This document shows, one piece after another, positions 11,844 to 59,058 of a stretch of 64,000 bases of DNA. This DNA comes from Nitrosopumilus sp. (GTDB taxonomy: Archaea > Thermoproteota > Nitrososphaeria > Nitrososphaerales > Nitrosopumilaceae): the NCBI GenBank assembly GCA_965238275.1, contig OZ250186.1:2112001-2176000 (forward strand), in the 5' to 3' direction. The position numbers and the translations under genes are program-made. Within the stretch, counting starts at the first letter, position 1, and each line of letters starts with the position of its first letter. The notes beneath the pieces are model-generated. The model saw nothing but the letters and a program-made list of their open reading frames with translations. It did no database searches and was not told the origin of the DNA.

Positions 11844-12943
11844 TACTGACGCGCAAAAGTTTTTGAGCAGATACCCTAGCCAACCGCAAAGTTTCTAGAT
11901 CAGGCTCCCTTCAGTGAGACATGAACGACACCAAACTGGAAGAACTCGAAAAGGTGTACAAAAAGGAAAAGGACCACAAGGTCCGAGCCAGAATGGTTGT
12001 GGTGCGCATGGTGCGCGTGCGCAACATGACCGTGGAGGAAACTGCTGACATTCAAGGACGTAGCCCAAACTGGGTCCGTAACTGGTTGCGCCGCTTCGAC
12101 GACGGGGGCCTGCAAGGCCTCCGTGATCTTCCACGATGCGGACGGCCCAGAAGGATTCCGCGAGATGTCATCGATGGAATAATTGCAAAGGCATCCTGCT
12201 GTAAAATCACACCCTCGGAGTTGCAGCAGAAGATACGCAAGGACACGGGCGTAAAACTTCACATCACGTACGTCAGGAAAATCATGCACCAGCACAACCT
12301 GTCTCCGAAGGCACCACGAAAGGTCCACGTCAATCGGGCCAACAAGAAGGCCGTGCAGAACTGGAAATATCGCTTCAACAAGCGGGTTTCACGCCTAGAA
12401 AAGGATGGTTTCACCGTATTAATGGAGGACGAGGCAATTTTCATACACGACGTGATAGTCGGCTGCAAATACTGGTCCCCGGTGGGCCGTTCCATAAGCG
12501 TGCCGTATACTGGCAGTCACAAGAGGATCGCAGCGTACGGTTCAATTGCCAAGGACGGCAGGCAGTTCTTCCGGACGTATGAGAAATTTGACGGGCCCAC
12601 GTTTGTCAGATACCTCAAGGATCTGCACAGGCACTTTGGCAAGGTGGTGGTGACCGCAGACAGGGCACCGCAGCACCGCTCAAAACTGGTAAAGGAATTT
12701 CTGCGAAATAACAAGGACGTCAAGATGATCTATTTGCCAAAGGGCTCGCCGTACCTCAACGCGATGGAAGAGTGCTGGCACCAGGGAAAGCGCGTCCTGC
12801 TAGTCTCCGAATATTACAGGACATTCCAAGACATGCACCGGGCAGTTTCGCTGTATTATCGAACCATCAGATTCAAGCTTGACCTTCTCAAATTTACCAG
12901 CCGAAAATATGAGATGCTGTGCAAGGACTTTTGATCGTCAGTA
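11844..12943 (+). mobile_element. IS630-family element (1100 bp)
   Basis: TIRs TACTGACGCGCAAAAGT / TACTGACGATCAAAAGT; TA duplication at 11842-43 and 12944-45. Confidence 0.9.
11921..12934 (+). CDS. IS630 transposase, intact ORF
   Basis: N-terminal HTH, GRPR, MEDEA, ADRAPQH, YLPKGSPYLNAMEECW. Confidence 0.93.
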   Translation: MNDTKLEELEKVYKKEKDHKVRARMVVVRMVRVRNMTVEETADIQGRSPNWVRNWLRRFDDGGLQGLRDLPRCGRPRRIPRDVIDGIIAKASCCKITPSELQQKIRKDTGVKLHITYVRKIMHQHNLSPKAPRKVHVNRANKKAVQNWKYRFNKRVSRLEKDGFTVLMEDEAIFIHDVIVGCKYWSPVGRSISVPYTGSHKRIAAYGSIAKDGRQFFRTYEKFDGPTFVRYLKDLHRHFGKVVVTADRAPQHRSKLVKEFLRNNKDVKMIYLPKGSPYLNAMEECWHQGKRVLLVSEYYRTFQDMHRAVSLYYRTIRFKLDLLKFTSRKYEMLCKDF

Positions 12944-27226: not shown

Positions 27227-27389
27227 ACAGCATCATGGATCGGTCTGGGATTTTAACTAATGGTGTCATGACGGGACGGTTATGATTCCCTCTACAACCA
27301 GGTACTGGATTACCTCTATGAAGGTGGCGTCATCTATTACATCGTCTGCCCACAGTCCTGCATTGCGCTTTACCCAGGACGGAATCTCA

Positions 27390-28835
27390 CTATAGCGGCG
27401 AGCGAAAGTTCGTGCAAACAGATCTCTCTGTAGCATGTCCTGATGCTCTTTCCGGCGCTCTGTCAGACCTTCCAATATTGTCGTCGTTGCCGGATCCAAG
27501 CCGACCTGTCGAATTGTTCATTCCAGAACCATCCGATCCGTGATCCTCGCGCCTTGTGACGACCTCGACACCTGCAATGGTGCCTCCACGATTCCCGTGG
27601 GCTTGGCCGCCAGTCTCCTCCGTATGGAGACAGTCATTATCCAAAATGTTTTTTGCCGCGTTCTTGTCGGCATGGTGGCACCATCCGCATGAGACGCAGA
27701 CAAATGATTCGCCGTTCCTGGATTTCTTGTCCACTACCCCGCAGGCAGCGCACCTCTGGCTTGTATGTGCGGATTCCACGCGTCTTGAAATTCCGCCTTT
27801 CTTTTTCATCTGCCATTCAAGCTGGATCCTGAACTCGCCCATTCTGGAATAGGCCATCTCGCGGTTCAACCCCGTCTTTGAAGCCGCCCCGCAGGATCGC
27901 CTCATCTTGGTCAAATCCAGGTCTTCCAGGAACAATACGGACAGTCCTTTTGTTATCCGCCTGGCAATGTCGGCCTCGTTGTGTTTTTGCCTGTTTGATA
28001 TCTTTTTCAATTCATGCGTTACCTTGCGGCCGATCTCTTTCCATCTTCTGGAGCCTGCCTGGCATCTTGATCTAAGTGATTTCAGCTGATCAATCCTGTC
28101 GCCGTCATGCCTCTTGCAGCCTCCGGGGACATTGTGCAGTTTTTCGTTCCCATGCTCGTCTGCGACTGCCGCAAGGTGCCTGACTCCAAGATCCAGCCCT
28201 GCCTTGCATCCGCCGCCGCCACCGCCTGTCGCGGGTTCGGGGTCTGGGACTTCTATCTGCAAATGCAGTTTGAATTCGCGATCACCATCCTTGGTCTTAC
28301 GCGTGACCTTGCCCGTGGTGTCAATCATCTGGAATGACACGAGCCTGCCTTCTGGAACCTTCGTGCGTGGCCTTGCTTCCCCGAGTCCGGGCAGAAACAC
28401 GGCTCCACTGTCTCGCAGTTTTGGCTTTGCGCGTGAATTCAGCGAGCGCAGCCTGGTTGTTTTCCTGCCGCGCCTCATCAGGCTGGACGGCTCGGTCCAC
28501 CGATTGTGCCTGTACGTCTTCTTTTTCCCCAGCTTGATCTGCTTCTTGCGCCAGATGCGCTTGTTGTGCTTGAGCCGGTTTGCCTTGCGGAATTTGACTG
28601 CCGCCTGGAAAGCCTGTTTTGAGGCGGCCTCGTGCATGCGGACGCTGCTGGCCAGGTTGAATTCCCTGCGCCATCCTGTTATCAGGTTGTTGATGTCAAA
28701 CTGTGTGATCCCCGGGTGTGCAAGTTTCATCATGATTGTCATGTCGTAAACGATGTCTGTTTCCCGGGAGCATTTCACGATCTTGCGTGACAGTTCCCGG
28801 GATTGTGTTATCTTGATGATTTTGCTGACAATCAT
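27390..28835 (-). CDS. tnpB: TnpB RNA-guided nuclease
   Basis: RuvC-I GLDLG, RuvC-II FLEDL, Zn finger CAACG..CVSCG, RuvC-III HADKNAAKNI. Confidence 0.92.
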   Translation of the reverse strand: MIVSKIIKITQSRELSRKIVKCSRETDIVYDMTIMMKLAHPGITQFDINNLITGWRREFNLASSVRMHEAASKQAFQAAVKFRKANRLKHNKRIWRKKQIKLGKKKTYRHNRWTEPSSLMRRGRKTTRLRSLNSRAKPKLRDSGAVFLPGLGEARPRTKVPEGRLVSFQMIDTTGKVTRKTKDGDREFKLHLQIEVPDPEPATGGGGGGCKAGLDLGVRHLAAVADEHGNEKLHNVPGGCKRHDGDRIDQLKSLRSRCQAGSRRWKEIGRKVTHELKKISNRQKHNEADIARRITKGLSVLFLEDLDLTKMRRSCGAASKTGLNREMAYSRMGEFRIQLEWQMKKKGGISRRVESAHTSQRCAACGVVDKKSRNGESFVCVSCGWCHHADKNAAKNILDNDCLHTEETGGQAHGNRGGTIAGVEVVTRREDHGSDGSGMNNSTGRLGSGNDDNIGRSDRAPERASGHATERSVCTNFRSPL

Positions 28836-28903
28836 ACCTGTAGTTGGGATTTATTTTCTTAAAAAGGATCTCAAAAAATTGCACGAACTTTCGCTTTTCA
28901 CTA
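27393..28903 (-). mobile_element. TIR-bounded TnpB-only element, copy 1 (1511 bp)
   Basis: 25-bp TIRs (21/25 match), TA duplication at 27391-92 and 28904-05; excision restores the host frame SDSSEIPSW. Confidence 0.92.
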
Positions 28904-30213
28904 TAGAATCGGAAGCGTCATCGGACTCGGTGGGGGGAAGGTCTATGACGCCCTCTGTTATCAGGAACTGGATTGCCTCTATGAAGGTGGCGTCATCTAT
29001 TACATCGCCTGCCCACAGTCCTGCATTGCGCTTTACCCAGGACGGGATGCTTACGGGTTCGTCGCTCACGGGTTCGTCGCCTGGAAATATCGTTATTGGA
29101 ACGAGCAGATAATCAGCGGGTCCCTCTGGAACAATATTTTCCTTAGCTTGGCCGTATATCCACACTGCATAGTCGACAGTGCCAGCATCCTCATCTACAG
29201 TCATTTCAAGAGAGTATTGGCCCGAGGTCGTATAGAGAACTCGCACACCTTCATCCTGTGCAAGTGATCTTATTGGCACACCAGAGTCATCCAGCACCAG
29301 AACATCAAACTGAACCTGGTTCAGGAACTCCGTGTCGTCCTCCTTTTTGATAAACTTGATAAGCCACTCCATCTCGCAGCCCTCGGCGGGATCCTCTGGC
29401 CCGTAGGAGACGTGTACCTGGTAGTGGTGGTGTTCGGTTGCCTTTTTGACCACGACTGTTCTTTGAACATCATCATCGCACCACGGCGGCAACAGATCAC
29501 TCCCCGTGGGGACTATGCCCGCAAACGGATTCTCCTGTACATACTGTTCATAGTCACGAAGTTCAAATTCATACTCTGTCGGAGGAATGCCTTCAGACAC
29601 ATGGACAAGTGTTGCAGCCTTAATCGGGAATGGGAAATCATCCACCACCCACACGTTGCTGACATATCCGCCCGTCTTCCAGGATATCCGAACAGTCTTC
29701 CATGTTCCTGCCGGAACAGTGACATCCTCGATCTCTTTTGGACGTATCTGCTCGCCGCCGATGTTTGCAATCTTGCCCCAGGATATATCAGTGAATGCCT
29801 TTGGGCCCTTCTGGCTCTCATCGATATTTGCAGTTGCATATGCAGACAGCCATGACACAGATGAGCCGAATGCACGCCTGTATTTATCCAGTTCAGGACT
29901 GCTGCCTGTCGGCTCAGGGATGAGTTTTCCCAGAGTCATATTTCCCACAATCACCTTGTTGCCGTCACGCACCACAACCTCTGCAAGCAGCTGTGTCTCA
30001 CTGCCGACTGTAACATCCCCCTTTATCCACATCTCAAAACTAAAATCCCTGCACTCCCTGTAGTCAAAATGACACATGGTATAATGAAAATAGTCGCCCT
30101 GCGCTAGTCCCTAGCCGACATACCATTCCCCCTCCTTGTCTACGCCGCCTGACTCGTACTGGGCAAATGCATCAGAAGAGTACGTCGCCAATAAAAGTAC
30201 CGTAATAGACAAG

Positions 30214-34752: not shown

Positions 34753-36198
34753 TTATAGCGGCGAGCGAAAATTCGTGCAAACAGATCTCTCTGTAGCATG
34801 TCCTGATGCTCTTTCCGGCGCTCTGTCAGACCTTCCAATATTGTCGTCGTTGTCGGATCCAAGCCGACCTGTCGAATTGTTCATTCCAGAACCATCCGAT
34901 CCGTGATCCTCGCGCCTTGTGACGACCTCGACACCTGCAATGGTGCCTCCACGATTCCCGTGGGCTTGGCCGCCAGTCTCCTCCGTATGGAGACAGTCAT
35001 TATCCAAAATGTTTTTTGCCGCGTTCTTGTCGGCATGGTGGCACCATCCGCATGAGACGCAGACAAATGATTCGCCGTTCCTGGACTTTTTGTCCACTAC
35101 CCCGCAGGCAGCGCACCTCTGGCTTGTATGTGCGTGTTCCACGCGTCTTGAAATTCCGCCTTTCTTTTTCATCTGCCATTCAAGCTGGATCCTGAACTCG
35201 CCCATTCTGGAATAGGCCATCTCGCGGTTCAACCCCGTCTTTGAAGCAGCCCCGTTGGATCGCCTCATCTTGGTCAAATCCAGATCTTCCAGGAACAATA
35301 CGGACAGTCCTTTTGTTATCCGTCTGGCAATGTCGGCCTCGTTGTGTTTTTGCCTGTTTGATGTCTTTTTCAATTCATGTGCTATCTTGCGCCCGATCTC
35401 TTTCCATCTTCTGGAGCCTGCCTGGCATCTTGATCTAAGTGATTTCAGCTGATCAATCCTGTCGCCGTCATGCCTCTTGCAGCCTCCGGGGACATTGTGC
35501 AGTTTTTCGTTCCCATGCTCGTCTGCGACTGCCGCAAGGTGCCTGACTCCAAGATCTAGCCCTGCCTTGCATCCGCCGCCACCGCCTGTCGCGGGTTCGG
35601 GGTCTGGGACTTCTATCTGCAAATGCAGTTTGAATTCGCGATCACCATCCTTGGTCTTGCGCGTGGCCTTGCCTGTGATATCGATCATCTGGAATGACAC
35701 GAACCTGCCTTCCGGGATCTTTACGCGCGGCCTTACTTCCCCGAATCCGGGCAGAAATACGGCTCCACTGTCTCGCAGTTTTGGCTTTGCGCGTGAATTC
35801 AGCGAGCGCAGCCTGGTTGTTTTCCTGCCGCGCCTCATCAGGCCAGACGGCTCGGTCCACCGATTGTGCTTGTACGTTTTCTTTTTCCCCACCAGCTTGA
35901 TCTGTTTCTTGCGCCAGATGCGCTTGTTGTGCTTGAGCCGGTTTGCCTTGCGGAATTTGACTGCCGCCTGGAAAGCCTGTTTTGAGGCGGCCTCATGCAT
36001 GCGGACGCTGTTGGTCAGGTTGAATTCCCTGCGCCATCCTGTTATCAGGTTGTTGACATCAAACTGCGTGATCCGTGAGTGTGCAAGTTTCATCATGATT
36101 GTCATGTCGTAAATGATGTCTGTTTCCCGGGAGCATTTCACGATCTTGCGTGACAGTTCCCGAGATTGTGTTATCTTGATGATTTTACTGACAATCAT
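34753..36198 (-). CDS. tnpB: TnpB RNA-guided nuclease
   Basis: Near-identical to copy 1; D/E/D catalytic residues intact. Confidence 0.92.
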   Translation of the reverse strand: MIVSKIIKITQSRELSRKIVKCSRETDIIYDMTIMMKLAHSRITQFDVNNLITGWRREFNLTNSVRMHEAASKQAFQAAVKFRKANRLKHNKRIWRKKQIKLVGKKKTYKHNRWTEPSGLMRRGRKTTRLRSLNSRAKPKLRDSGAVFLPGFGEVRPRVKIPEGRFVSFQMIDITGKATRKTKDGDREFKLHLQIEVPDPEPATGGGGGCKAGLDLGVRHLAAVADEHGNEKLHNVPGGCKRHDGDRIDQLKSLRSRCQAGSRRWKEIGRKIAHELKKTSNRQKHNEADIARRITKGLSVLFLEDLDLTKMRRSNGAASKTGLNREMAYSRMGEFRIQLEWQMKKKGGISRRVEHAHTSQRCAACGVVDKKSRNGESFVCVSCGWCHHADKNAAKNILDNDCLHTEETGGQAHGNRGGTIAGVEVVTRREDHGSDGSGMNNSTGRLGSDNDDNIGRSDRAPERASGHATERSVCTNFRSPL

Positions 36199-39025: not shown

Positions 39026-39100
39026 GCTCCTATAGTGTAGTCCGGTTAAGCATACTGCCCTCTCAAGGCAGTGACTCGGGTTCAAATCCCGATGGGAGCA
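39026..39100 (+). tRNA. tRNA-Glu(CTC)
   Basis: Acceptor GCTCCTA/TGGGAGC, anticodon stem CTGCC/GGCAG with loop CTCTCAA, TTCAAAT T-loop. Confidence 0.95.
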
Positions 39101-43092: not shown

Positions 43093-43166
43093 GCAGTTAT
43101 AGTATAGTTTGGTTATTATGCGAGCTTGCCAAGTTCGTGACCCGGGTTCAAATCCCGGTAACTGCA
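43093..43166 (+). tRNA. tRNA-Gly(GCC)
   Basis: Acceptor GCAGTTA/TAACTGC, loop TTGCCAA, TTCAAAT T-loop, followed by CCA. Confidence 0.93.
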
Positions 43167-44915: not shown

Positions 44916-45230
44916 ACTAACAGTTTGTACAGTATGCTTAAAAATAGATGCCATGGCAGATGGCACCCATACCCCGGAACTGACGCGGATCCGGCATCAC
45001 ATAGCCTGCAGGCCAAACCGCACCATGCCGTAGGACGTATTGGACTCACGGATTCGTGCGATCCGGAGATACGGCGCATGCCAAATCCCTTTATTGTCAT
45101 GGAACCGCACACACACATAGAGACAGTCACATGACCAAGTGCGGGGTGATGAGTAGGTCGACTGAAACGGGATGTGGAGACATGACCTGGGGTATTTGAC
45201 TGCATTAGGTTATGCCGTGTTTGGGTTCTG

Positions 45231-46720
45231 TAGTGAAAAGCGAAAGTTCGTGCAATTTTTTGGATCCCTTTTTAAGAAAACAAATTCTATCCACATACAT
45301 GATTGTCAGCAAACGCGTTACGATAATGCAGTCTCGGGAATTGTCACGCAAGATTGTAAAATGTTCCCTGGAAACAGACGTCGTTTACGACATGACCATA
45401 CTGATGAAACTGGCCCATCCCAAAATGACCCAGTTTGACGTGAACAACCTGATAACTGGCTGGCGCAAAGAATTCAACCTGACCAACAGCGTCCGCATGC
45501 ATGAGGCCGCGTCCAAGCAGGCCCTCCAGTCGGTAATCAAATTTAAGAAATCAAATGTGAAAAAACACGCAAAACGGATCTGGCGCAAGAAGCAGATAAA
45601 GCTCGGCAAGGCCAGAACGTACAGGCACAACAGGTGGACGGATCCGTCCAGCCTGATGAGGCGCGGCAAGAAGACAACCAGGCTGCGTTCGCTGAATTCG
45701 CGCGGAAAGCCAAAACTGCGAGACGACGGCACGGTGTTCCTGCCCGGACTCGGAGGGGTAAGGCCGCGCACGGAGATCCCCGAAGGCAGGTTTGTGTCGT
45801 TCCAGATGATCGACATTACAAACAAGGTCACGCGCAAGACCAATGACGGTGATCGCAGGTTCAAACTGCATTTGCAGGTAGAAGTTCCAGACCCCGAACC
45901 AGCTGCAGGCTGCAAGGCAGGGATCGATCTGGGCGTCAGGCACCTTGCGGCAGTCGCAGACGAGGACGGGAACGAAAAACTGTACAATGTTCCTGGCGGG
46001 TGCAGGCGTCACGACGGCGACAAGATTGACCGGTTGAAGTCACGCCGGTCAAAATGCGTGCGCGGTTCGCGCAAATGGGGAAAGGTCGGCCGCATGATAC
46101 AACGTGAATTGAAAAAGATATCCGACAGGCAGAAACACAACGAAACGGGCATTGCCAGGCGGATAACAAAAGGCCTGTCTGCGGTATTTTTGGAAGACAT
46201 GGATTTGACCAGGATGAGGAGATCCAACGGAAAGGCACCAAAGACCGGGTTGAACCGCGAGATGGCATACTCTAGGATGGGGGAGTTTCGGAGCCAGGTT
46301 GAATGGCAGATGAAAAAGAAAGGCGGAGTTTCAAAACGCGTGGAATACAAGAATACCAGCCAGAGGTGTGCTGTTTGCGGAACTGTGGACAAAAAGTCCA
46401 GAAACGGCGAATCCTTTGCCTGCACTGCATGCGGGTGGTACCACCACGCCGACAAGAACGCGGCAAAAAATATTTTGGATAATGACTGCCTCCACATGGG
46501 GGCTGGCGGCCAAGCCCACAAAAACAGTGGAGGCACCATTGCAGGTGTCAAGGTCGTCACAAGGCGCGAGGATCACGGTTCAGGCAGTCCTGCAAGGGAC
46601 AGCTTGACAAGTCGGCTTGGACCCGACAACGATGATTTTGGAAGATCTGACAGAGCGCCGGAAAGGGCATCAGGGCATGCTACGGAGAAATCTGTTTGCA
46701 CAAACTTTCGCTCGCCGCTA
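45231..46720 (+). mobile_element. TIR-bounded TnpB-only element, copy 3 (1490 bp, diverged)
   Basis: TAGTGAAAAGCGAAAGTTCGTGCAA ... TTGCACAAACTTTCGCTCGCCGCTA; TG duplication at 45229-30 and 46721-22. Confidence 0.9.
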
Positions 46721-46780
46721 TGGTACCAGTCACACTGCAGAGCCAGAACCCAGACGGCCCGCATAAGGAACCGCCAATAG
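45299..46780 (+). CDS. tnpB: TnpB RNA-guided nuclease (reads through the right end into the flank)
   Basis: GIDLG, FLEDM, CAVCG..CTACG, HADKNAAKNI; TTTTTAAG box about 25 bp upstream. Confidence 0.92.
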   Translation: MIVSKRVTIMQSRELSRKIVKCSLETDVVYDMTILMKLAHPKMTQFDVNNLITGWRKEFNLTNSVRMHEAASKQALQSVIKFKKSNVKKHAKRIWRKKQIKLGKARTYRHNRWTDPSSLMRRGKKTTRLRSLNSRGKPKLRDDGTVFLPGLGGVRPRTEIPEGRFVSFQMIDITNKVTRKTNDGDRRFKLHLQVEVPDPEPAAGCKAGIDLGVRHLAAVADEDGNEKLYNVPGGCRRHDGDKIDRLKSRRSKCVRGSRKWGKVGRMIQRELKKISDRQKHNETGIARRITKGLSAVFLEDMDLTRMRRSNGKAPKTGLNREMAYSRMGEFRSQVEWQMKKKGGVSKRVEYKNTSQRCAVCGTVDKKSRNGESFACTACGWYHHADKNAAKNILDNDCLHMGAGGQAHKNSGGTIAGVKVVTRREDHGSGSPARDSLTSRLGPDNDDFGRSDRAPERASGHATEKSVCTNFRSPLWYQSHCRARTQTARIRNRQ

Positions 46781-52164: not shown

Positions 52165-52476
52165 CAGGATTGTCGCCGGCGTCCCGAACCTGCTGACTGC
52201 CTGACGGAGTACTGTTACCGCGTTCTCCGAAGTGGCCTCCCTGAACAGCGCAGCGCCTGTGATGCACCTGGAGGCGTCGTCAAGGTACGTAATCAGGTTC
52301 AGATTCCTCATGCGCTGATCAGGATTGTCGCCGGCGTCCCGAACCTGCTGACTGCCTGACGGAGTACTGTTACCGCGTTCTCCGAAGTGGCCTCCCTGAA
52401 CAGCGCAGCGCCTGTGATGCACCTGGAGGCGTCGTCAAGGTACGTAATCAGGTTCAGATTCCTCATGCGCTGATCA
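52165..52476. repeat. 155-bp tandem duplication inside the IS481 integrase core
   Basis: Identical blocks starting at 52165 and 52320. Confidence 0.92.
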
Positions 52477-53016
52477 TTCATGACGTGCCAGTCCGTGTGC
52501 CACATAGCATTGGAGTAGATGCGTTCGTACCTGATCCACTTGCGTTTTTTGGATTTTGCAGGAGGGTCGACCACGAGGCCGTTGGATTTCATAATTTGGT
52601 ATACCCTAGAGCGGCTCATATTGTGTCCATCACCCTTGAGTCTCCTGGCAGTCCTGGGCCGGACCCCGCTAGAATGAGACCGATCAAATCCGAATGCCTT
52701 TTGGAGCAGGGGGTCGAGGGAAGGACATGAGCAAGAGACGTAGTCCCCAGGACAAGGCCAGGATAGTGATGGAGTTTTTTACCACCAATGTGCCAGCTGC
52801 CGAATTGTGCCGAAAGCACAACGTGTCGCCTGCAACCTTCCAAGACTGGAAGGACAAGTTCCTGCAGGGAGACAAGCAGGCTCTCATAAACAGGGGGGAT
52901 GCAGCCAAAAACCATTTGGCAGAGGTGGAAAACCTCAAGCGCATAATAGAAGATATGCGTAATCCGGAACTTTTTCAAACTCCGCGCTGACATGTTAGCC
53001 CTGCTGTCAAAAATTT

Positions 53017-53700
53017 ATGATCCATCCAATTAAAACCAGAATATGCCGGTTCATACTGTTGTCGAATCAGGAAACAAGTGACCTGCAAAAAGAGAACAAG
53101 GCTCTCAGAGACATGATCAAGCGCCAGGACGCTGACATCAAGCGCTTGGAGGCAGCCGCCAAGCACGAGCAAAGCCTGTGGGGTACGCGAGACGGCTCCG
53201 AGTCTGGAGCCGCAGGAGAGCCCGCCCTGCTGCATCGCGTGGAGGTCTTTGATGAGATCATCAGAGTCGAGAAAAATCTTCATGACGCGACGCTGAAGTG
53301 CAGGGAACAGTTCCAATACATGCTTGACAGGGTCGAGGCATGGATAAGGCAAAGCGGCAAATCCCCGCTCTTCAGGAACGACGAGACGAGGGCGTCGGAT
53401 CCCGGGAACCGCTGCAAGCTGTACCCCAGGCACGCGCTGCTCATGGCGCTGATGTACAAAAAGGGCAACCCCACGCAGGGCGCACTTGCGGCATTCTTTG
53501 GAATAGACCAGGCAACCGTGTCCCGGTATATCGATGTACTAGACGGGGTGCTTGAGGCGGTGCTGCCCACCGCTGCCAACATCTCAAAGGAGATAGCAGG
53601 CACGGAGACAAAAGAGGATCTCAAAAAAATAATTTCCGGGCCGGACGGGGGCATCATGATGATCGACGGCACGCACTGCCCCATAAGAAAATATGCGTAA
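53017..53700 (+). pseudogene. Truncated IS5-family transposase (copy of 56063-57313)
   Basis: Near-identical until IDGTHCP, then interrupted. Confidence 0.88.
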
Positions 53701-53754
53701 TCCCCCTGTTCACATCGATAAATTTAGATCAGGCACGATCGCGTCTCACATCAA

Positions 53755-55125
53755 ATGCCAGACTCGCCTGATCAGATCATGCACAGATTGGAACAGGAAA
53801 ACAGAAGCCTAAAAAATATTCTAAAGCAGAAAGACAAAAAGCTGGAACAGAAAGACAAAAAGCTGGAACAGAAAGACAAAAAGCTGGAACAGAAAGACAA
53901 AACCCTAAAAAATATTCTAAAGCAGAAAGACAAAAAGCTGGAACAGAAAGACAGAAGCCTAAAAAATATTCTAAAGCAGAAAGACAAAAAGCTGGAACAG
54001 AAAGACAGGGAGTTGGGCCTTGAACGCGGCCTGTGGAAGAGCAGGAACGATGGCTGGAACCCCGGCAAGGGGCCCGCGTTGCACCTGCTAGAGGTGCTAG
54101 ACGGCATAATACGCGACGGGGACAAGCTCCGCCATGTCACGCTGGCAGACGGGGAACAGTTCCGGTACATGCTGGAGCGGGCCAAGGTGTTTCTGACGCA
54201 TTCGGGCCAGATGCCGCTGTTCCGCGATAACGCATCCCGGGTCTCCGATCCCGGAAACCGGTGCAAACTGTACCTGAGACACGCACTGCTCCTAGCACTT
54301 ATCCGCAAAAAGGACAACCCCGCCCAAGGCGTGCTTGCCGCATTCTTCGGGATAGACCAGACCACCGTGTCCCGGTACATTCCGGTGATGGATGCGATGC
54401 TGACAGGAATACTTCCGACGGCAGACAACATATCCGAGGAGGTAGCTGCTGCCCCGACCAAGGAGGATTTCAAGAAGATCGTGCCCGGGTCCGACGGGGG
54501 CGAGATATTCATAGACGGCACGCACTGCCCCGTGCAGCGCCCGTCTGTAAAGTCAGTCCGGCGCATGGGATACTCCGGCAAGAAGAAAAAGTTCACCAAC
54601 AATACCAACGTGTACACCAACCGGGACGGGGTGGTGATCGGCATATCAAAAAGCACCGTCGGGTCAGTCGGCGACATCACGTTGCTCAAGGAACGCCCCA
54701 TGCCGTTTGGAAAGTGGGAGGAGGCGATGCACGATCCGGACCTGCCAGAATCAGACAGGTGCCACCCCTTCGTCGACCGCGGCTACCAGGGAATCGCAGA
54801 TCACCTGCCCGGCACCACGCCGGAGATCCCGTACAAGAAGACCAGGGACACGCCGCTGACGCCGGAGCAAAAAAAGCACAACCACAGGATCAACTCCACC
54901 AGGGTGTTGGTGGAGCACACGATAGGCAGGCTCAAGCGCTACGCGCGTCTTGCCGACCCGTACGACGGCAACGCGGCCCAGTTCAACAGGGAGTTCAACG
55001 TGATCACCGGGCTGGTAAACCTGAACCTTTTGTGGGACTGCATGGAAAAGGGTCCGCCACCACCGGGGCAGTGGAAGACGTCAGTAGACTGGGACAGGGC
55101 CTGCTCCGAAGCTCCGGTCAAGTAG
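53755..55125 (+). CDS. IS5-family transposase with N-terminal heptad repeats
   Basis: IDGTHCP, YSGKKKK, DRGYQG, RVLVEHTIGRLK. Confidence 0.9.
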   Translation: MPDSPDQIMHRLEQENRSLKNILKQKDKKLEQKDKKLEQKDKKLEQKDKTLKNILKQKDKKLEQKDRSLKNILKQKDKKLEQKDRELGLERGLWKSRNDGWNPGKGPALHLLEVLDGIIRDGDKLRHVTLADGEQFRYMLERAKVFLTHSGQMPLFRDNASRVSDPGNRCKLYLRHALLLALIRKKDNPAQGVLAAFFGIDQTTVSRYIPVMDAMLTGILPTADNISEEVAAAPTKEDFKKIVPGSDGGEIFIDGTHCPVQRPSVKSVRRMGYSGKKKKFTNNTNVYTNRDGVVIGISKSTVGSVGDITLLKERPMPFGKWEEAMHDPDLPESDRCHPFVDRGYQGIADHLPGTTPEIPYKKTRDTPLTPEQKKHNHRINSTRVLVEHTIGRLKRYARLADPYDGNAAQFNREFNVITGLVNLNLLWDCMEKGPPPPGQWKTSVDWDRACSEAPVK

Positions 55126-55898
55126 AATTCAGGGCACGATGAAGTGCTGCAAGGCTGCGCACGTCATTTTGGATTTTGGGGTGAACAGACTTGCCACATA
55201 CACGACACGAGCAGTTTTAGGCCGTATTTTTCCGGTTTTTTATGGCCGGGTTGGCAAAATGGGTGGATTACGCATATCTTCTAATAGGCGAGATCACCGT
55301 AGCCAACGACATTTTAAAAAAAACTTTGGAGGGAACAAAGTGATGAGGATGCAGGCCGTAAGTGACGTAAGCAAGTGCATGAGCCTGAACAGGGCCCTGC
55401 AATACTGCGGCATGTCCAAACACTCCTGGTACTACACCAAGAAGCCAAGAGACATGGCCATCATCTGGCCGCATGAGTTTGCGCGCTTTCAAGATGCAGA
55501 GGTCGTACTTGCAAAGGCCTTTGAGGACTACAACAAGGACAGGATCCACTCGGCTCTGGGGTATCTCACACCCGACGAGTTTATCGGCAAGATGGAGGTT
55601 GAGAATAGATGAGAGACATGATTATTCGGAAAAAGATGCAAAAAGTGGTACCAAAAACAAGGGTCCAGATCAGTCCGTACTGCACCCTCCGGCCTGCGGC
55701 GGTGGGCGTCCAGTAACGCTTGGATCTCCAGATCAGACGGCACGGGATTTCTCGGTCTCCCTGCAAGGATCTGTTGGTGTGCTGTTCCCGTCTTGAGGTA
55801 CTCTGCCCACAACCACTGGATGTGCCGCTGCGTCACGTGCATCTCCTTTGCCACGGTATCGGTGTCCTTGCCATTTTTCATCTGGTTGATGATGTATT

Positions 55899-57382
55899 AG
55901 AAGCCATGCGTAATCCCTCCATTTCGTTGGGTTAAACCAGAAAAACCCAGAAAATATTAAAAATTCTGATTTAATTCCCGTCATGTCAAGCGTGTGGAAA
56001 CCCGTCCTGCCAGAAATACAAAATAACGTGCGCAACCTTGCAGCACCACGATGTGCACGGAATTAATTGTTTGAAACGGCGCTGCCGGGGACGTTTGCCT
56101 CTTCCCAGTTTATTACCGGCCCCAGCGTGCTACCTGAAGGAGGTCCTTTCTTCATCTGGTTCCACAGGAGGTCCAGGTTTACGAGTCCGGTTATTATGTT
56201 AAATTCCCTGTTAAAGTCGCCAATCTTTCCTTTGTATGGCGCGGTAAGCCGGCCGTACCGCTTCAGCCTGCCGATGGAGTGCTCCACCTTTACCCTGGCC
56301 GAGTTGACGGCGTGGTTGTGCTCCTTTTCCTCCTTTGTAAAGCGCTTGTGGTTCTTGGTCTTCTTGTGCGGCTGCAGGGTGTTTGTGCCGGGCAGATCCT
56401 TTGCGATTCCCTTGTAGCCGCGGTCAGTAAGGGTGTGGATCCTGTCTTCTTCGGGGGTGTCCTCGTCGCACATCCTGTCCCACCATCTTCCAAATGGCAG
56501 CGGGCTCTCCCTGAGCAGCGTGATGTCGTGGACGGATCCCACGGTGCTGCCGGATATGGCGACTATCACCCCGTTTTCATTTATGCACACGGTGGTGTTG
56601 AGCGTGAATTTCTTCTTCTTGCCAGAATACATCATGCTCCTCATCTGTTTTTCGTCTGGCCGCTGCAGCGGACAGTGCGTGCCGTCGATCATCATGATGC
56701 CCCCGTCAGGCCCGGAAATTATTTTTTTGAGATCCTCTTTTGTCTCCGTGCCTGCTATCTCCTTTGAGATGTTGGTAGCGGTGGGCAGCACCGCCTCAAG
56801 CACCTCGTCTAGCACATCGATATACCGGGACACGGTCGCCTGGTCTATTCCAAAGAATGCCGCAAGCACGCCCTGCGTGGGGTTGCCCTTTTTGTACATC
56901 AGCGCCATGAGCAGCGCGTGCCTTGGGTACAGCTTGCAGCGGTTCCCGGGATCCGACGCCCTCGTCTCGTCACTCCTGAAGAGCGGGGATTTGCCGCTTT
57001 GCCTTATCCACGCCTCGGCCCTGTCAAGCATGTATTGGAACTGTTCCCTGCACTTCAGCGTCGCGTCATGAAGATTTTTCCCGACTCTGATGATCTCATC
57101 AAGGACCTCCACGCGATGCAGCAGGGCGGGCTCTCCTGCGGCTCCGGACTCGGAGCCGTCCCGTGTGCGCCACAGGCTTTGCTCGTGCCTGGCAGCTGCG
57201 TCCTGGCGCTTGATCATGTCTCTGAGAGCCTTGTTCTCTTTTTGCAGGTCACTTGTTTTCTGATTCGACAACAGTATGAACCGGCATATTTTGGTTTTAA
57301 TTGAATGGATCATAAATTTTTGACAGCAGGGCTAACATGTCAACGCGGAGTTTGAAAAAGTTCTGGATTACGCATATTTTCT
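55899..57382 (-). mobile_element. IS5-family element A (1484 bp)
   Basis: TIRs AGAAGCCATGCGTAATCC / AGAAAATATGCGTAATCC; TSD ATT. Confidence 0.9.
56063..57313 (-). CDS. IS5-family transposase, intact ORF
   Basis: IDGTHCP, GSVHD, DRGYKG, RVKVEHSIGRLK. Confidence 0.9.
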   Translation of the reverse strand: MIHSIKTKICRFILLSNQKTSDLQKENKALRDMIKRQDAAARHEQSLWRTRDGSESGAAGEPALLHRVEVLDEIIRVGKNLHDATLKCREQFQYMLDRAEAWIRQSGKSPLFRSDETRASDPGNRCKLYPRHALLMALMYKKGNPTQGVLAAFFGIDQATVSRYIDVLDEVLEAVLPTATNISKEIAGTETKEDLKKIISGPDGGIMMIDGTHCPLQRPDEKQMRSMMYSGKKKKFTLNTTVCINENGVIVAISGSTVGSVHDITLLRESPLPFGRWWDRMCDEDTPEEDRIHTLTDRGYKGIAKDLPGTNTLQPHKKTKNHKRFTKEEKEHNHAVNSARVKVEHSIGRLKRYGRLTAPYKGKIGDFNREFNIITGLVNLDLLWNQMKKGPPSGSTLGPVINWEEANVPGSAVSNN

Positions 57383-57609
57383 ATTGTATGGACTTGGCCG
57401 TTAGTTTCGGCCTCATTGCCTCACTGGATTTGTGTAGCTTAAAGTAGTCTCGGAATGTGCGCTTGACTACACCCAAGCGACATGATTTTTGGACAATAGA
57501 AAATGTAATTTGCGGATCATCAGGCCCAACCAGTTGGATGTGGGGTATGCAAATGCCTTGCGTGCGGTGCTAGCCTGCCGCGTACGTTATTTGACAGGCG
57601 AACCACGTA

Positions 57610-59058
57610 TTATCCTACGACTATGATTCCCTCTTTTATGAGGAACTGTATGGCAGATACAAACGAGGCATCATCTATGTCTCCATTTACCCAGTGTCCT
57701 GCGGTACCCTTTATCCAGTCTGGGATTGGCTTTTCCCCCGGATCCTTCTCAGACAAAGTCGGCGGAATCTGTAGTATCCCTTCGTTTACCAGAAACTGCA
57801 TGGCAGATACAAACGAGGCATCATCTATGTCTCCATTTACCCAGTGTCCTGCGGTACCCTTTATCCAGTCTGGGATTTTTTGGACAGAAACGGTGCTTTC
57901 CTTGGCAAATATTTGGACGGGGATTTCCACATAATCCGCAGTGGCGGATGGGACGATGTGCTCAGGCGACAATCCGTAAACCCAGACGACATAATTTGCG
58001 ATCCCGGGTTCCTCTTTAACGATAAAATCAATCATGGCCTGTCCGGATGGGGAGTAAAGAAAGTCTCTGCCCTCCTCCTGTGCCAGTGATCTCAGCGGTT
58101 TCAGGTCGTCATCCACTACAAGAAAGTCGTACTGAACCTGGTTTAGAAACTCGGTATCGTCAAACTTGCTGATGAATTTTATGAGCCACTGCATCTCACA
58201 GCCTTCCACGGGGTCTTCAGGTCCGTAGAAAGCGTGGATTTGGTAGTCGGAGTTGCTCGTAGGCTTTTTGACACTTACCGCTTTTTCTATACTAGTGTCA
58301 CAGCCGGATGTGGCAAGCAGATCTGCCGTGGACTCAATCCCGGCAAAGGGAGTCTCCAGGACGTTTTCCCTGTATTCCCGTAACTCGAATATGTATTCCG
58401 GGGGAGGAATGCCTTCAGATACGTGTGTATACGTTTGCGCCTTTATCGGAAAGGGAAAATCGTCAACTATCCAAACCTTACTTACGGCACCGCCCGTCTT
58501 CCAGCCAACTTGGACCGTTTCCCATGTGCCAGCTCGAACTGTGACCGTCTCAATTGCCACGGGGACTACTTGCTGGCCGCCAATGTTACCAATTTTTCCC
58601 CAAGACACCGCTGAGAATTCTTTTGGTCCCTTGCCGCCGGAGCTTCCGTCGGCTGTCGCAAATGCGGACAGCCAGACAATCGAGGATTTGAAGGCCCCCC
58701 TGTAAGTACTCAGGTTCTCAGTGCCGCCTGTCGGCTCGGGAGCGATTTTTCCCAGCTCCATTTCGCCCCTGATGACCTTGTTGCCGTCATAGACGACGAC
58801 CTCTGATAGCCACTTGATTTCGCTTCCTACCTGCTTGTCCCCCTTTATCCAGATGTCCATTTCAAATTTGACGCATTCTTTGTAATCCACATGGCACATT
58901 GAATAGGAGAAGTAGTCGCCCTGTTTGAGACCCTCGCCTGCAAACCAAGTGCCCTCTTTGTCAACGCCGCCTGCCTCAATTTGTGCAAAGGTGGTAGCCG
59001 GTATGAATAACGCCAAAAGAAGCATGGGAATAATCGAAAACAGCAAAGTTTGTTTCAA
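57610..59058 (-). CDS. Secreted surface protein with two IPDWIK C-terminal domains
   Basis: Signal peptide; duplicated IPDWIKGTAGHWVNGDIDDASFVSA.QFL. Confidence 0.85.
   Translation of the reverse strand: MKQTLLFSIIPMLLLALFIPATTFAQIEAGGVDKEGTWFAGEGLKQGDYFSYSMCHVDYKECVKFEMDIWIKGDKQVGSEIKWLSEVVVYDGNKVIRGEMELGKIAPEPTGGTENLSTYRGAFKSSIVWLSAFATADGSSGGKGPKEFSAVSWGKIGNIGGQQVVPVAIETVTVRAGTWETVQVGWKTGGAVSKVWIVDDFPFPIKAQTYTHVSEGIPPPEYIFELREYRENVLETPFAGIESTADLLATSGCDTSIEKAVSVKKPTSNSDYQIHAFYGPEDPVEGCEMQWLIKFISKFDDTEFLNQVQYDFLVVDDDLKPLRSLAQEEGRDFLYSPSGQAMIDFIVKEEPGIANYVVWVYGLSPEHIVPSATADYVEIPVQIFAKESTVSVQKIPDWIKGTAGHWVNGDIDDASFVSAMQFLVNEGILQIPPTLSEKDPGEKPIPDWIKGTAGHWVNGDIDDASFVSAIQFLIKEGIIVVG

Follow-up and report, generated by a model that had tools for sequence, protein, structure and literature searches.

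Most work on the guide RNAs (omega-RNAs) of the nuclease TnpB has dealt with IS200/IS605 and IS607 elements, whose excision leaves no scar. A different setting appears in passages of Altae-Tran et al. (2023; PMC10691335), which describe IS630-linked TnpBs with symmetric transposon ends (a large branch, 'DDE-6'), other DDE-associated TnpBs, and solo TnpBs with ends that resemble those of elements bearing a transposase, which implies that they are mobilised in trans. Passages of a second source (PMC13565253) characterise IS607 by a serine recombinase and by the lack of inverted repeats and target duplication, and give the two duplications that flank a Fanzor distinct roles: the 5' copy is part of the target-adjacent motif, the 3' copy part of the RNA scaffold. 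Those passages treat the role of TnpB in a cut-and-paste DDE transposon as a question still to be answered. Here we analyze a TnpB-only mobile element of 1,490 bp (copy 3; 45231-46720, plus strand) in a 64,000-nucleotide stretch of the archaeon Nitrosopumilus sp. (contig OZ250186.1, positions 2,112,001 to 2,176,000). We call this whole stretch the window and use its coordinates unless a genome or locus is named. We consider it quite likely that the RNA region at the right end of this element is the guide-RNA (omega-RNA) scaffold of TnpB, carried by a non-autonomous element with IS630-type inverted repeats; the guide function is argued from position and sequence. IS630-linked TnpBs as such are already published (PMC10691335), and what is new here is a well-resolved member with its fold and a candidate motif.

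The genome that contains the window (G000) is one 2.22-Mb contig, in which we located 24 right ends of this TnpB element family. Copy 3 is a divergent member, with ∼81% identity to the remaining copies. Its parts, and the two other copies in the window, are the following.

45228-45230, plus strand: flanking C (45228) and left copy of the duplicated dinucleotide, TG here and TA in all other copies; candidate target-adjacent motif.
45231-45256, plus strand: left terminal inverted repeat; its 17-bp core is the reverse complement of 46696-46712, and 15-20 of 26 bases agree with IS630 termini.
45299-46780, plus strand: tnpB open reading frame (ORF), 493 amino acids, ATG at 45299; core to about 46480, tail (46481-46780) crossing the RNA region into the flank.
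46481-46722, plus strand: candidate omega-RNA scaffold; full-length match to covariance model R1 (253.7 bits, model positions 1-239).
46696-46720, plus strand: right terminal inverted repeat, which also contains the 3' strand of helix P4.
46721-46722, plus strand: right copy of the duplicated dinucleotide (TG), where similarity among copies ends.
46723-46742, plus strand: candidate guide, flank-specific; the 20-nt length is assumed by analogy.
27393-28903, minus strand: copy 1 element.
27391-27638, minus strand: RNA region of copy 1; full-length covariance-model match (G000:C1:2139391-2139638).
34756 to about 36266, minus strand: copy 2 element, outer left end replaced.
34754-35001, minus strand: RNA region of copy 2; full-length covariance-model match (G000:C1:2146754-2147001).

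To describe the RNA region quantitatively, we aligned 28 right-end regions from G000 and its congener G017 (alignment A2; 27 distinct rows, row 1 being window 46451-46722). RNAalifold yields 55 pairs on this alignment, 24 of them changed on both sides, and pairing holds in 97.6% of 1,484 cells. Not one of 500 shuffles matched A2 in paired share, compensated-pair count or covariation score, and a control in which the 3' partners were slid by 1-3 columns gave 33-50% pairing with 4-6 compensated pairs. The covariance model R1 has 239 positions and 62 pairs. An alignment of 33 sequences, which was fitted to this model and is hence biased toward its structure, is 94.6% paired with 30 of 62 pairs compensated, a level that 0 of 500 shuffles reach. 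Four sequences left out of model building match R1 over its full length; one of these (L026, protein 45% identical) has 62% nucleotide identity to copy 3 and keeps 53 of the 62 pairs, with 16 changed on both sides relative to copy 3. The fold, ∼235 nt on the sense strand, is conserved with many compensatory changes and ends in the right inverted repeat. An earlier note on this DNA, made from the letters of the window, had proposed a candidate omega-RNA that overlaps the TnpB tail and runs into the right terminal inverted repeat, and had expected covariation over all copies. Both RNAalifold and the covariance model place the region as a whole far above chance, and the proposal agrees with the strand-specific conserved fold, the stop of similarity after TA, the DDE-type termini and the TA duplication. 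The helices are listed below.

46488-46493 with 46498-46503, plus strand: hairpin H1; 3 of 5 pairs changed on both sides (model-fitted alignment).
46504-46510 with 46553-46559, plus strand: long-range helix P1 (46504-46559), enclosing H2 and H3; 99.5% of cells paired, one U-A to C-G switch.
46516-46520 with 46526-46530, plus strand: H2; 3 of 5 pairs changed on both sides.
46532-46537 with 46544-46549, plus strand: H3; 5 of 6 pairs changed on both sides.
46563-46566 with 46656-46659, plus strand: P2 (within 46563-46659); 100% of cells paired.
46570-46574 with 46644-46648, plus strand: long-range helix P3; 100% of cells paired, 2 pairs changed on both sides; P2 and P3 enclose H4 and H5.
46580-46590 with 46597-46607, plus strand: H4, a 10-pair stem with an internal mismatch; 9 of 10 counted pairs changed on both sides.
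46611-46615 with 46623-46627, plus strand: H5; 1 of 5 pairs changed on both sides, with G-U intermediates.
46665-46668 with 46710-46713, plus strand: P4, which closes H6 in the 3' domain (46665-46713); pair 238:284 occurs as A-U, U-G, G-U and C-G.
46682-46695, plus strand: hairpin H6, predicted in 23 of 23 distinct sequences folded singly.

The strings quoted in the earlier note lie at 46487-46495 (TGCCTCCAC), 46527-46535 (GTGGAGGCA), 46587-46600 (GTCC-TGCAAG-GGAC), 46611-46627 (GTCGG-CTTGGAC-CCGAC) and 46647-46673 (CTGA...TCAG). It had also reported GTTC-TGGAAT-GAAC from copies 1 and 2, where we find it, and three right flanks, which match. Two of its four hairpins belong to the fold, GTCC/GGAC as the tip of H4 and GTCGG/CCGAC as H5. 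The other two, TGCCTCCAC/GTGGAGGCA and CTGA/TCAG, do not: as helices they are paired in 80.1% of cells, where shuffles average 80.8% and 454 of 500 equal or exceed the real value, and 1 of 13 pairs is changed on both sides. Their bases pair instead in H1, H2, H3 and the long-range P3. The suggestion that the terminal inverted repeat doubles as the scaffold 3' end agrees with P4, whose 3' strand lies inside the right repeat and one pair of which covaries.

A separate observation concerns H4 in one G017 subfamily (L045, L047, L049, L053, L057, L175-L177 and L185; columns 143-170 of A2, 112-140 of A4). In copies that are otherwise near-identical, this stem exists as at least five unrelated sequences, mostly perfect stems of 10-11 bp. 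It seems that the stem has been replaced wholesale with pairing retained, and template switching within the hairpin is a possibility as the source of these coordinated changes.

The fold has a narrow distribution. A DNA search of 41 related genomes found the RNA region only in G000 and G017, at 66-75% identity, and a covariance-model search of 151 genomes of the genus found the RNA in three: G000, G017 and G151. A 20-base degenerate H5 pattern, tried over genome contigs, was discarded: it returned at least 105 stretches, nearly all from unrelated bacteria, and re-found one relative.

The protein encoded over this region is a TnpB. Window 45212-46780 (plus strand) is a single open frame with both TnpB Pfam domains, OrfB_IS605 (PF01385, 7.1e-15) and the zinc-finger domain Cas12f1-like_TNB (PF07282, 3.5e-16), both of which exceed the cut-offs. 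Among 17 sequences, D210 and C357 are invariant, and E299, D385, C360, C375 and C378 are conserved at 90% or more; from motif context, we take D210, E299 and D385 to be the RuvC Asp-Glu-Asp triad, accompanied by CxxC...CxxC. The TnpB core is compact (390 amino acids) and is predicted with confidence by AlphaFold2. The RuvC-III Asp codon begins at 46451, the element ends at 46720 and the in-frame stop lies at 46780, in accord with the earlier description of ∼240 nt that follow the RuvC-III motif still in frame. The frame is open to the element end or past it in 13 of 21 near-full G000 copies; in 7 of the 21 the stop consists of the duplicated TA and the flank base that follows it, and in other copies the frame extends 5-75 nt or more into the flank. 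The stop codon thus lies outside the element, and therefore the last residues of the protein vary with the insertion site.

The boundaries of the element are sharp. At all 24 right ends, the shared sequence runs as far as ...GCTA and the adjoining dinucleotide, which is TA in 23 copies and TG in copy 3, and divergence directly after the duplicated dinucleotide is also seen at 16 of 16 right ends in other genomes. Copy 3 has TG on both its left and right sides. A 219-nt contig at 46505-46721, from a run presumed to be RNA, was considered as evidence for a transcript end and found uninformative: contigs from X3 and X4, two unclassified runs, end at that repeat boundary as well.

Several copies have a more complex history. 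Copy 2 and the copy at G000 828591-830104 have a common altered outer left end and common upstream sequence, and therefore either a larger segment was duplicated or the left end was replaced before copying. Another copy (G000 883621-891002) is interrupted by an insertion of ∼5.9 kb in which a further IS630-type element is found, and in copy L240 (G151) a terminus belonging to a different IS630 subgroup truncates the right end. Copy 1 is bracketed by 105-nt direct repeats that are 90% identical (27281-27385 and 28944-29048), with weaker copies 29 kb away (57622-57726 and 57772-57876). We rejected these repeats as a target duplication; copy 1 was apparently inserted in a gene with internal repeats.

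The ends of the element are true inverted repeats, with a 17-bp perfect core and matching tips; the left and right termini differ in the outer 8 bases. At the G151 site orthologous to the copy at G000 196568-198108 (flank 95% identical, L263), a single TA is found where G000 has TA-element-TA, and the same empty site in G017 (L264) also has one TA; TA was therefore duplicated on insertion. At another copy, joining the flanks with a single TA, and only then, restores in frame what we presume to be the filter motif of a potassium channel. A count of spanning open frames over reconstructed empty sites (10 of 18 with one TA, 12 of 18 with two) was too noisy at the G+C content of this genome, 53%.

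Which transposase could have made these ends? Six-frame searches of G000 and G017 gave 0 matches to the Y1 transposase domain PF01797 (controls positive in 6 of 14) and 0 matches to the serine recombinase domain PF00239 (controls positive in 12 of 14). IS630-type DDE_3 domains (PF13358) have 34 matches in G000 and 16 in G017. The genome holds several IS630 subgroups with unrelated termini: the termini of one subgroup share up to 22 of 26 bases with those of the TnpB element, as expected from the earlier suggestion of a DDE-type terminal inverted repeat, and three other subgroups share 4-13 of 26. The transposase is never inside the TnpB element and sits on separate 1.1-kb IS630 copies, one of which lies intact in the window.

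11844-12943, plus strand: intact IS630-family element, TA-flanked; ORF 11921-12934, 337 amino acids, helix-turn-helix (HTH) and DDE_3 (1.3e-19).

The termini of this element agree with those of the TnpB element in 15-21 of 26 bases, and we regard it as a candidate trans source of transposase. Because of the inverted repeats, the TA duplication, the matching DDE_3 termini and the absence of Y1 and serine transposase matches, we assign the TnpB element, on its sequence features, to the non-autonomous IS630-type transposons, with tnpB as cargo. It is neither an IS200/IS605 element (IS1341 group) nor an IS607 element: it has inverted repeats and a duplication, and the two genomes are without PF01797 and PF00239 matches. 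In G017, a ∼150-bp element at L216 1503-1652 carries the same inverted repeats between two TA dinucleotides and is too short to hold a gene; it resembles a miniature inverted-repeat transposable element (MITE) derived from the same transposon group.

We examined the left flank in 36 elements with a recognisable left end, 20 from G000 and 16 from Nitrosopumilus-labelled loci found by protein similarity. In all 36, a C immediately precedes the left copy of the duplicated dinucleotide, which is itself TA or TG; the two bases before this C are A or T in 25 and 30 of the elements, respectively. The mirror position at the right end, where G is expected, fits in 16 of 40 cases. A nuclease motif beside the left end is the known TnpB arrangement. 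Because a one-sided rule is not expected from a symmetric transposase, the counts suggest that C-TA is a candidate target-adjacent motif, putatively read by TnpB. The rival explanation of this sub-claim is that the invariant C reflects an asymmetric target choice by the IS630 transposase. It gains from the difference between left and right termini in their outer bases and from the related IS630 elements, whose ends have C or G adjoining TA at 18 of 23; C itself, however, adjoins TA at only 10 of these 23 ends and fits at the minority of right ends given above, compared with every left end. A distant TnpB family with other termini and a longer duplication, described next, also has an invariant base on the left only. 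We regard asymmetric target choice as possible, with the odds somewhat against it.

The distant family (∼30% protein identity; L186-L201, Cenarchaeum loci labelled as metagenome-assembled genomes, for example L186 846-2869) has different inverted repeats of about 13-40 bp and 8-bp target duplications. In all 13 elements with a recognisable duplication, the base immediately before its left copy is G, with no one-base rule on the right side. The ...AGAGCGCCAGAAA... module of the RNA 3' domain is common to both families.

Taken together, these features suggest how the element may work. The tnpB transcript would start at an archaeal-type promoter in the left end and read through the right end; TnpB would retain the 3' part of this transcript as scaffold, with ∼16-20 nt of flank past the TA as guide. 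The TnpB-RNA complex could then cut an empty site (C-TA followed by flank), and the occupied site would escape, since its right TA is preceded by the terminal A of the element and not by C. Repair of the break from the occupied copy would keep or spread the element, and new insertions would be made in trans by an IS630 transposase. A bolder extension would make C plus the duplicated TA the nuclease motif, so that only insertions beside C survive, with cutting of the still-empty allele needed to fix each DDE-made insertion and not merely to restore excised copies; the element would then be a prokaryotic counterpart of Fanzor1, its inverted repeat recruited as the last strand of the scaffold helices and its whole scaffold serving also as codons. 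We hold this extension to be doubtful, though worth stating.

How secure is the assignment of the region to an RNA, and of that RNA to TnpB as its guide scaffold? The conservation could in principle belong to a translated C-terminal tail of TnpB, with pairing as a by-product, and such a view has the open frame of 13 of the 21 near-full copies behind it, together with indels between lineages that are multiples of three and tail motifs conserved at the protein level down to 45% identity. We nonetheless find it highly improbable. Those motifs coincide with helices P1, P2, P3 and H5, between 24 and 30 pairs are changed on both sides with pairing kept, and the tail has pLDDT (predicted local distance difference test) values of 23-44 over residues 397-493 and no domain in a Pfam scan of the ORF. 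Codon positions point the same way: between copy 3 and the main family, variability in the TnpB core is 0.30 at third positions versus 0.13 and 0.12 at first and second, whereas in the tail the three positions are roughly alike (0.19 versus 0.12 and 0.12), and other pairs are similar (third 0.14-0.19, first and second 0.12-0.14). The constraint on the tail thus appears to act on RNA, not protein, because the approximately twofold third-position excess of the core vanishes there. That the hairpins are single-stranded DNA structures for transposition, like the subterminal hairpins of IS200/IS605, is an idea we judge extremely improbable. Classical TnpB elements do belong to IS200/IS605 (as passages of PMC13565253 have it) and DNA hairpins would covary too, but neither G000 nor G017 matches PF01797, and the element combines true inverted repeats with a duplicated TA, whereas those passages describe IS200/IS605 with neither. 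The fold extends over 235 nt and includes long-range helices as well as G-U pairs. The latter occupy 164 of the 1,484 cells, one pair being G-U in 27 of 27 distinct rows, and pairing on the opposite strand would fall to 86.5% of cells.

An RNA that acts in cis is harder to separate from a guide scaffold. The fold might be a part of the tnpB mRNA that controls stability, termination, translation or transposase access, the flank having no role; covariation shows only selection on an RNA fold, and with the ORF translated through it an interplay of ribosome and RNA is conceivable. Even so, the position, size and multi-helix form are those described for the guide RNAs of TnpB, no more than 250 bp from where the transposon ends (passages of PMC10691335), the left-only invariant C suits a nuclease motif and not an mRNA element, and the catalytic residues of TnpB are retained, which together make a cis-acting element unlikely in our estimation. 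A guide scaffold remains our preferred reading, and several points weigh against it. The frame is open across the entire RNA and its indels come in threes, so some translational constraint is possible; the sequences come from three genomes of one genus, perhaps six lineages, and cell counts overstate the number of independent events; and the structure was tested on the alignment that had produced it. H6 aligns poorly (78.2% paired in the model-fitted alignment), with a loop that differs by one base between G000 and G017 and no common register by MAFFT or the covariance model. A tentative closing helix that joins the RuvC-III codons to the element's terminal bases (columns 16-18 with 286-288) is weak, with 3 pairs and 3 of 27 rows unpaired at one of them. 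The RNA region matches no Rfam family (an E-value scan of 26500-47500 returned two tRNAs and one sub-threshold match overlapping a tRNA), and the invariant C is explicable by an asymmetric target preference of the transposase. Finally, cut-and-paste DDE excision already leaves a break, so that a homing nuclease would bring a less evident gain here than in IS605 (passages of PMC13565253).

Other features of the window are two tRNA genes and several repeats.

39026-39100: tRNA gene (Rfam, 64.2 bits).
43093-43166: tRNA gene (Rfam, 63.4 bits).
52165-52474: exact 155-bp tandem duplication.
52940-57385: inverted repeats of 545 nt and 188 nt, 95-97% identity, ∼3-4 kb apart.
53789-54016: repeat array with a 21-nt period.

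How does this element compare with described systems? For IS630-linked TnpBs, the passages of PMC10691335 contain no RNA fold or target-adjacent motif, and the genus Nitrosopumilus is not named in one text supplement of that paper. In the full-text literature, a body that leaves subscription journals outside its coverage, we found no description of the fold or motif of a prokaryotic IS630-borne TnpB and no paper that joins TnpB with Nitrosopumilus. The present family is a compact, multi-copy natural case that combines a supported fold, clear boundaries, a candidate three-base motif (C-TA) and an identified partner transposase, and the role of a nuclease in a DDE transposon is thereby open to direct experiment. 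The short motif and the small size of the core may also interest genome editing. We take ISDra2 as an example of an IS200/IS605 TnpB with a right-end guide RNA.

With the IS630-linked TnpBs of PMC10691335, as its passages describe them, our element has in common symmetric inverted-repeat ends and a gene that stops no more than 250 bp short of the transposon boundary, a likeness to that branch by description only. It differs in that the transposase lies on separate IS630 copies, and in that HTH and DDE_3 are in one ORF where those passages have a separate HTH protein. It resembles IS200/IS605 TnpBs, as characterised in passages of PMC13565253, in having the same Pfam domains and a scaffold, here a candidate one, that spans the end of tnpB together with the right end of the element, to which we would add a flank guide and a left-end motif. 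Those elements are described with a Y1 transposase, no inverted repeats or duplication, and insertion 3' of a 4-5-nt site; here, in contrast, the ends are inverted repeats, TA is duplicated, the partner is of DDE type, and searches of G000 and G017 found no Y1 gene. The parallel with Fanzor1 of eukaryotic Tc1/mariner-type elements lies in an RNA-guided TnpB homologue carried by a TA-duplicating DDE transposon, and in a guide RNA that crosses the 3' inverted repeat into the duplication, with the 5' duplication assigned to the motif and the 3' one to the scaffold, the arrangement that we propose here (passages of PMC13565253 and PMC10312701). Unlike Fanzor1, the Nitrosopumilus element is archaeal, has a compact 390-residue core without introns, and holds its RNA fully inside the ORF instead of in a 3' untranslated region.

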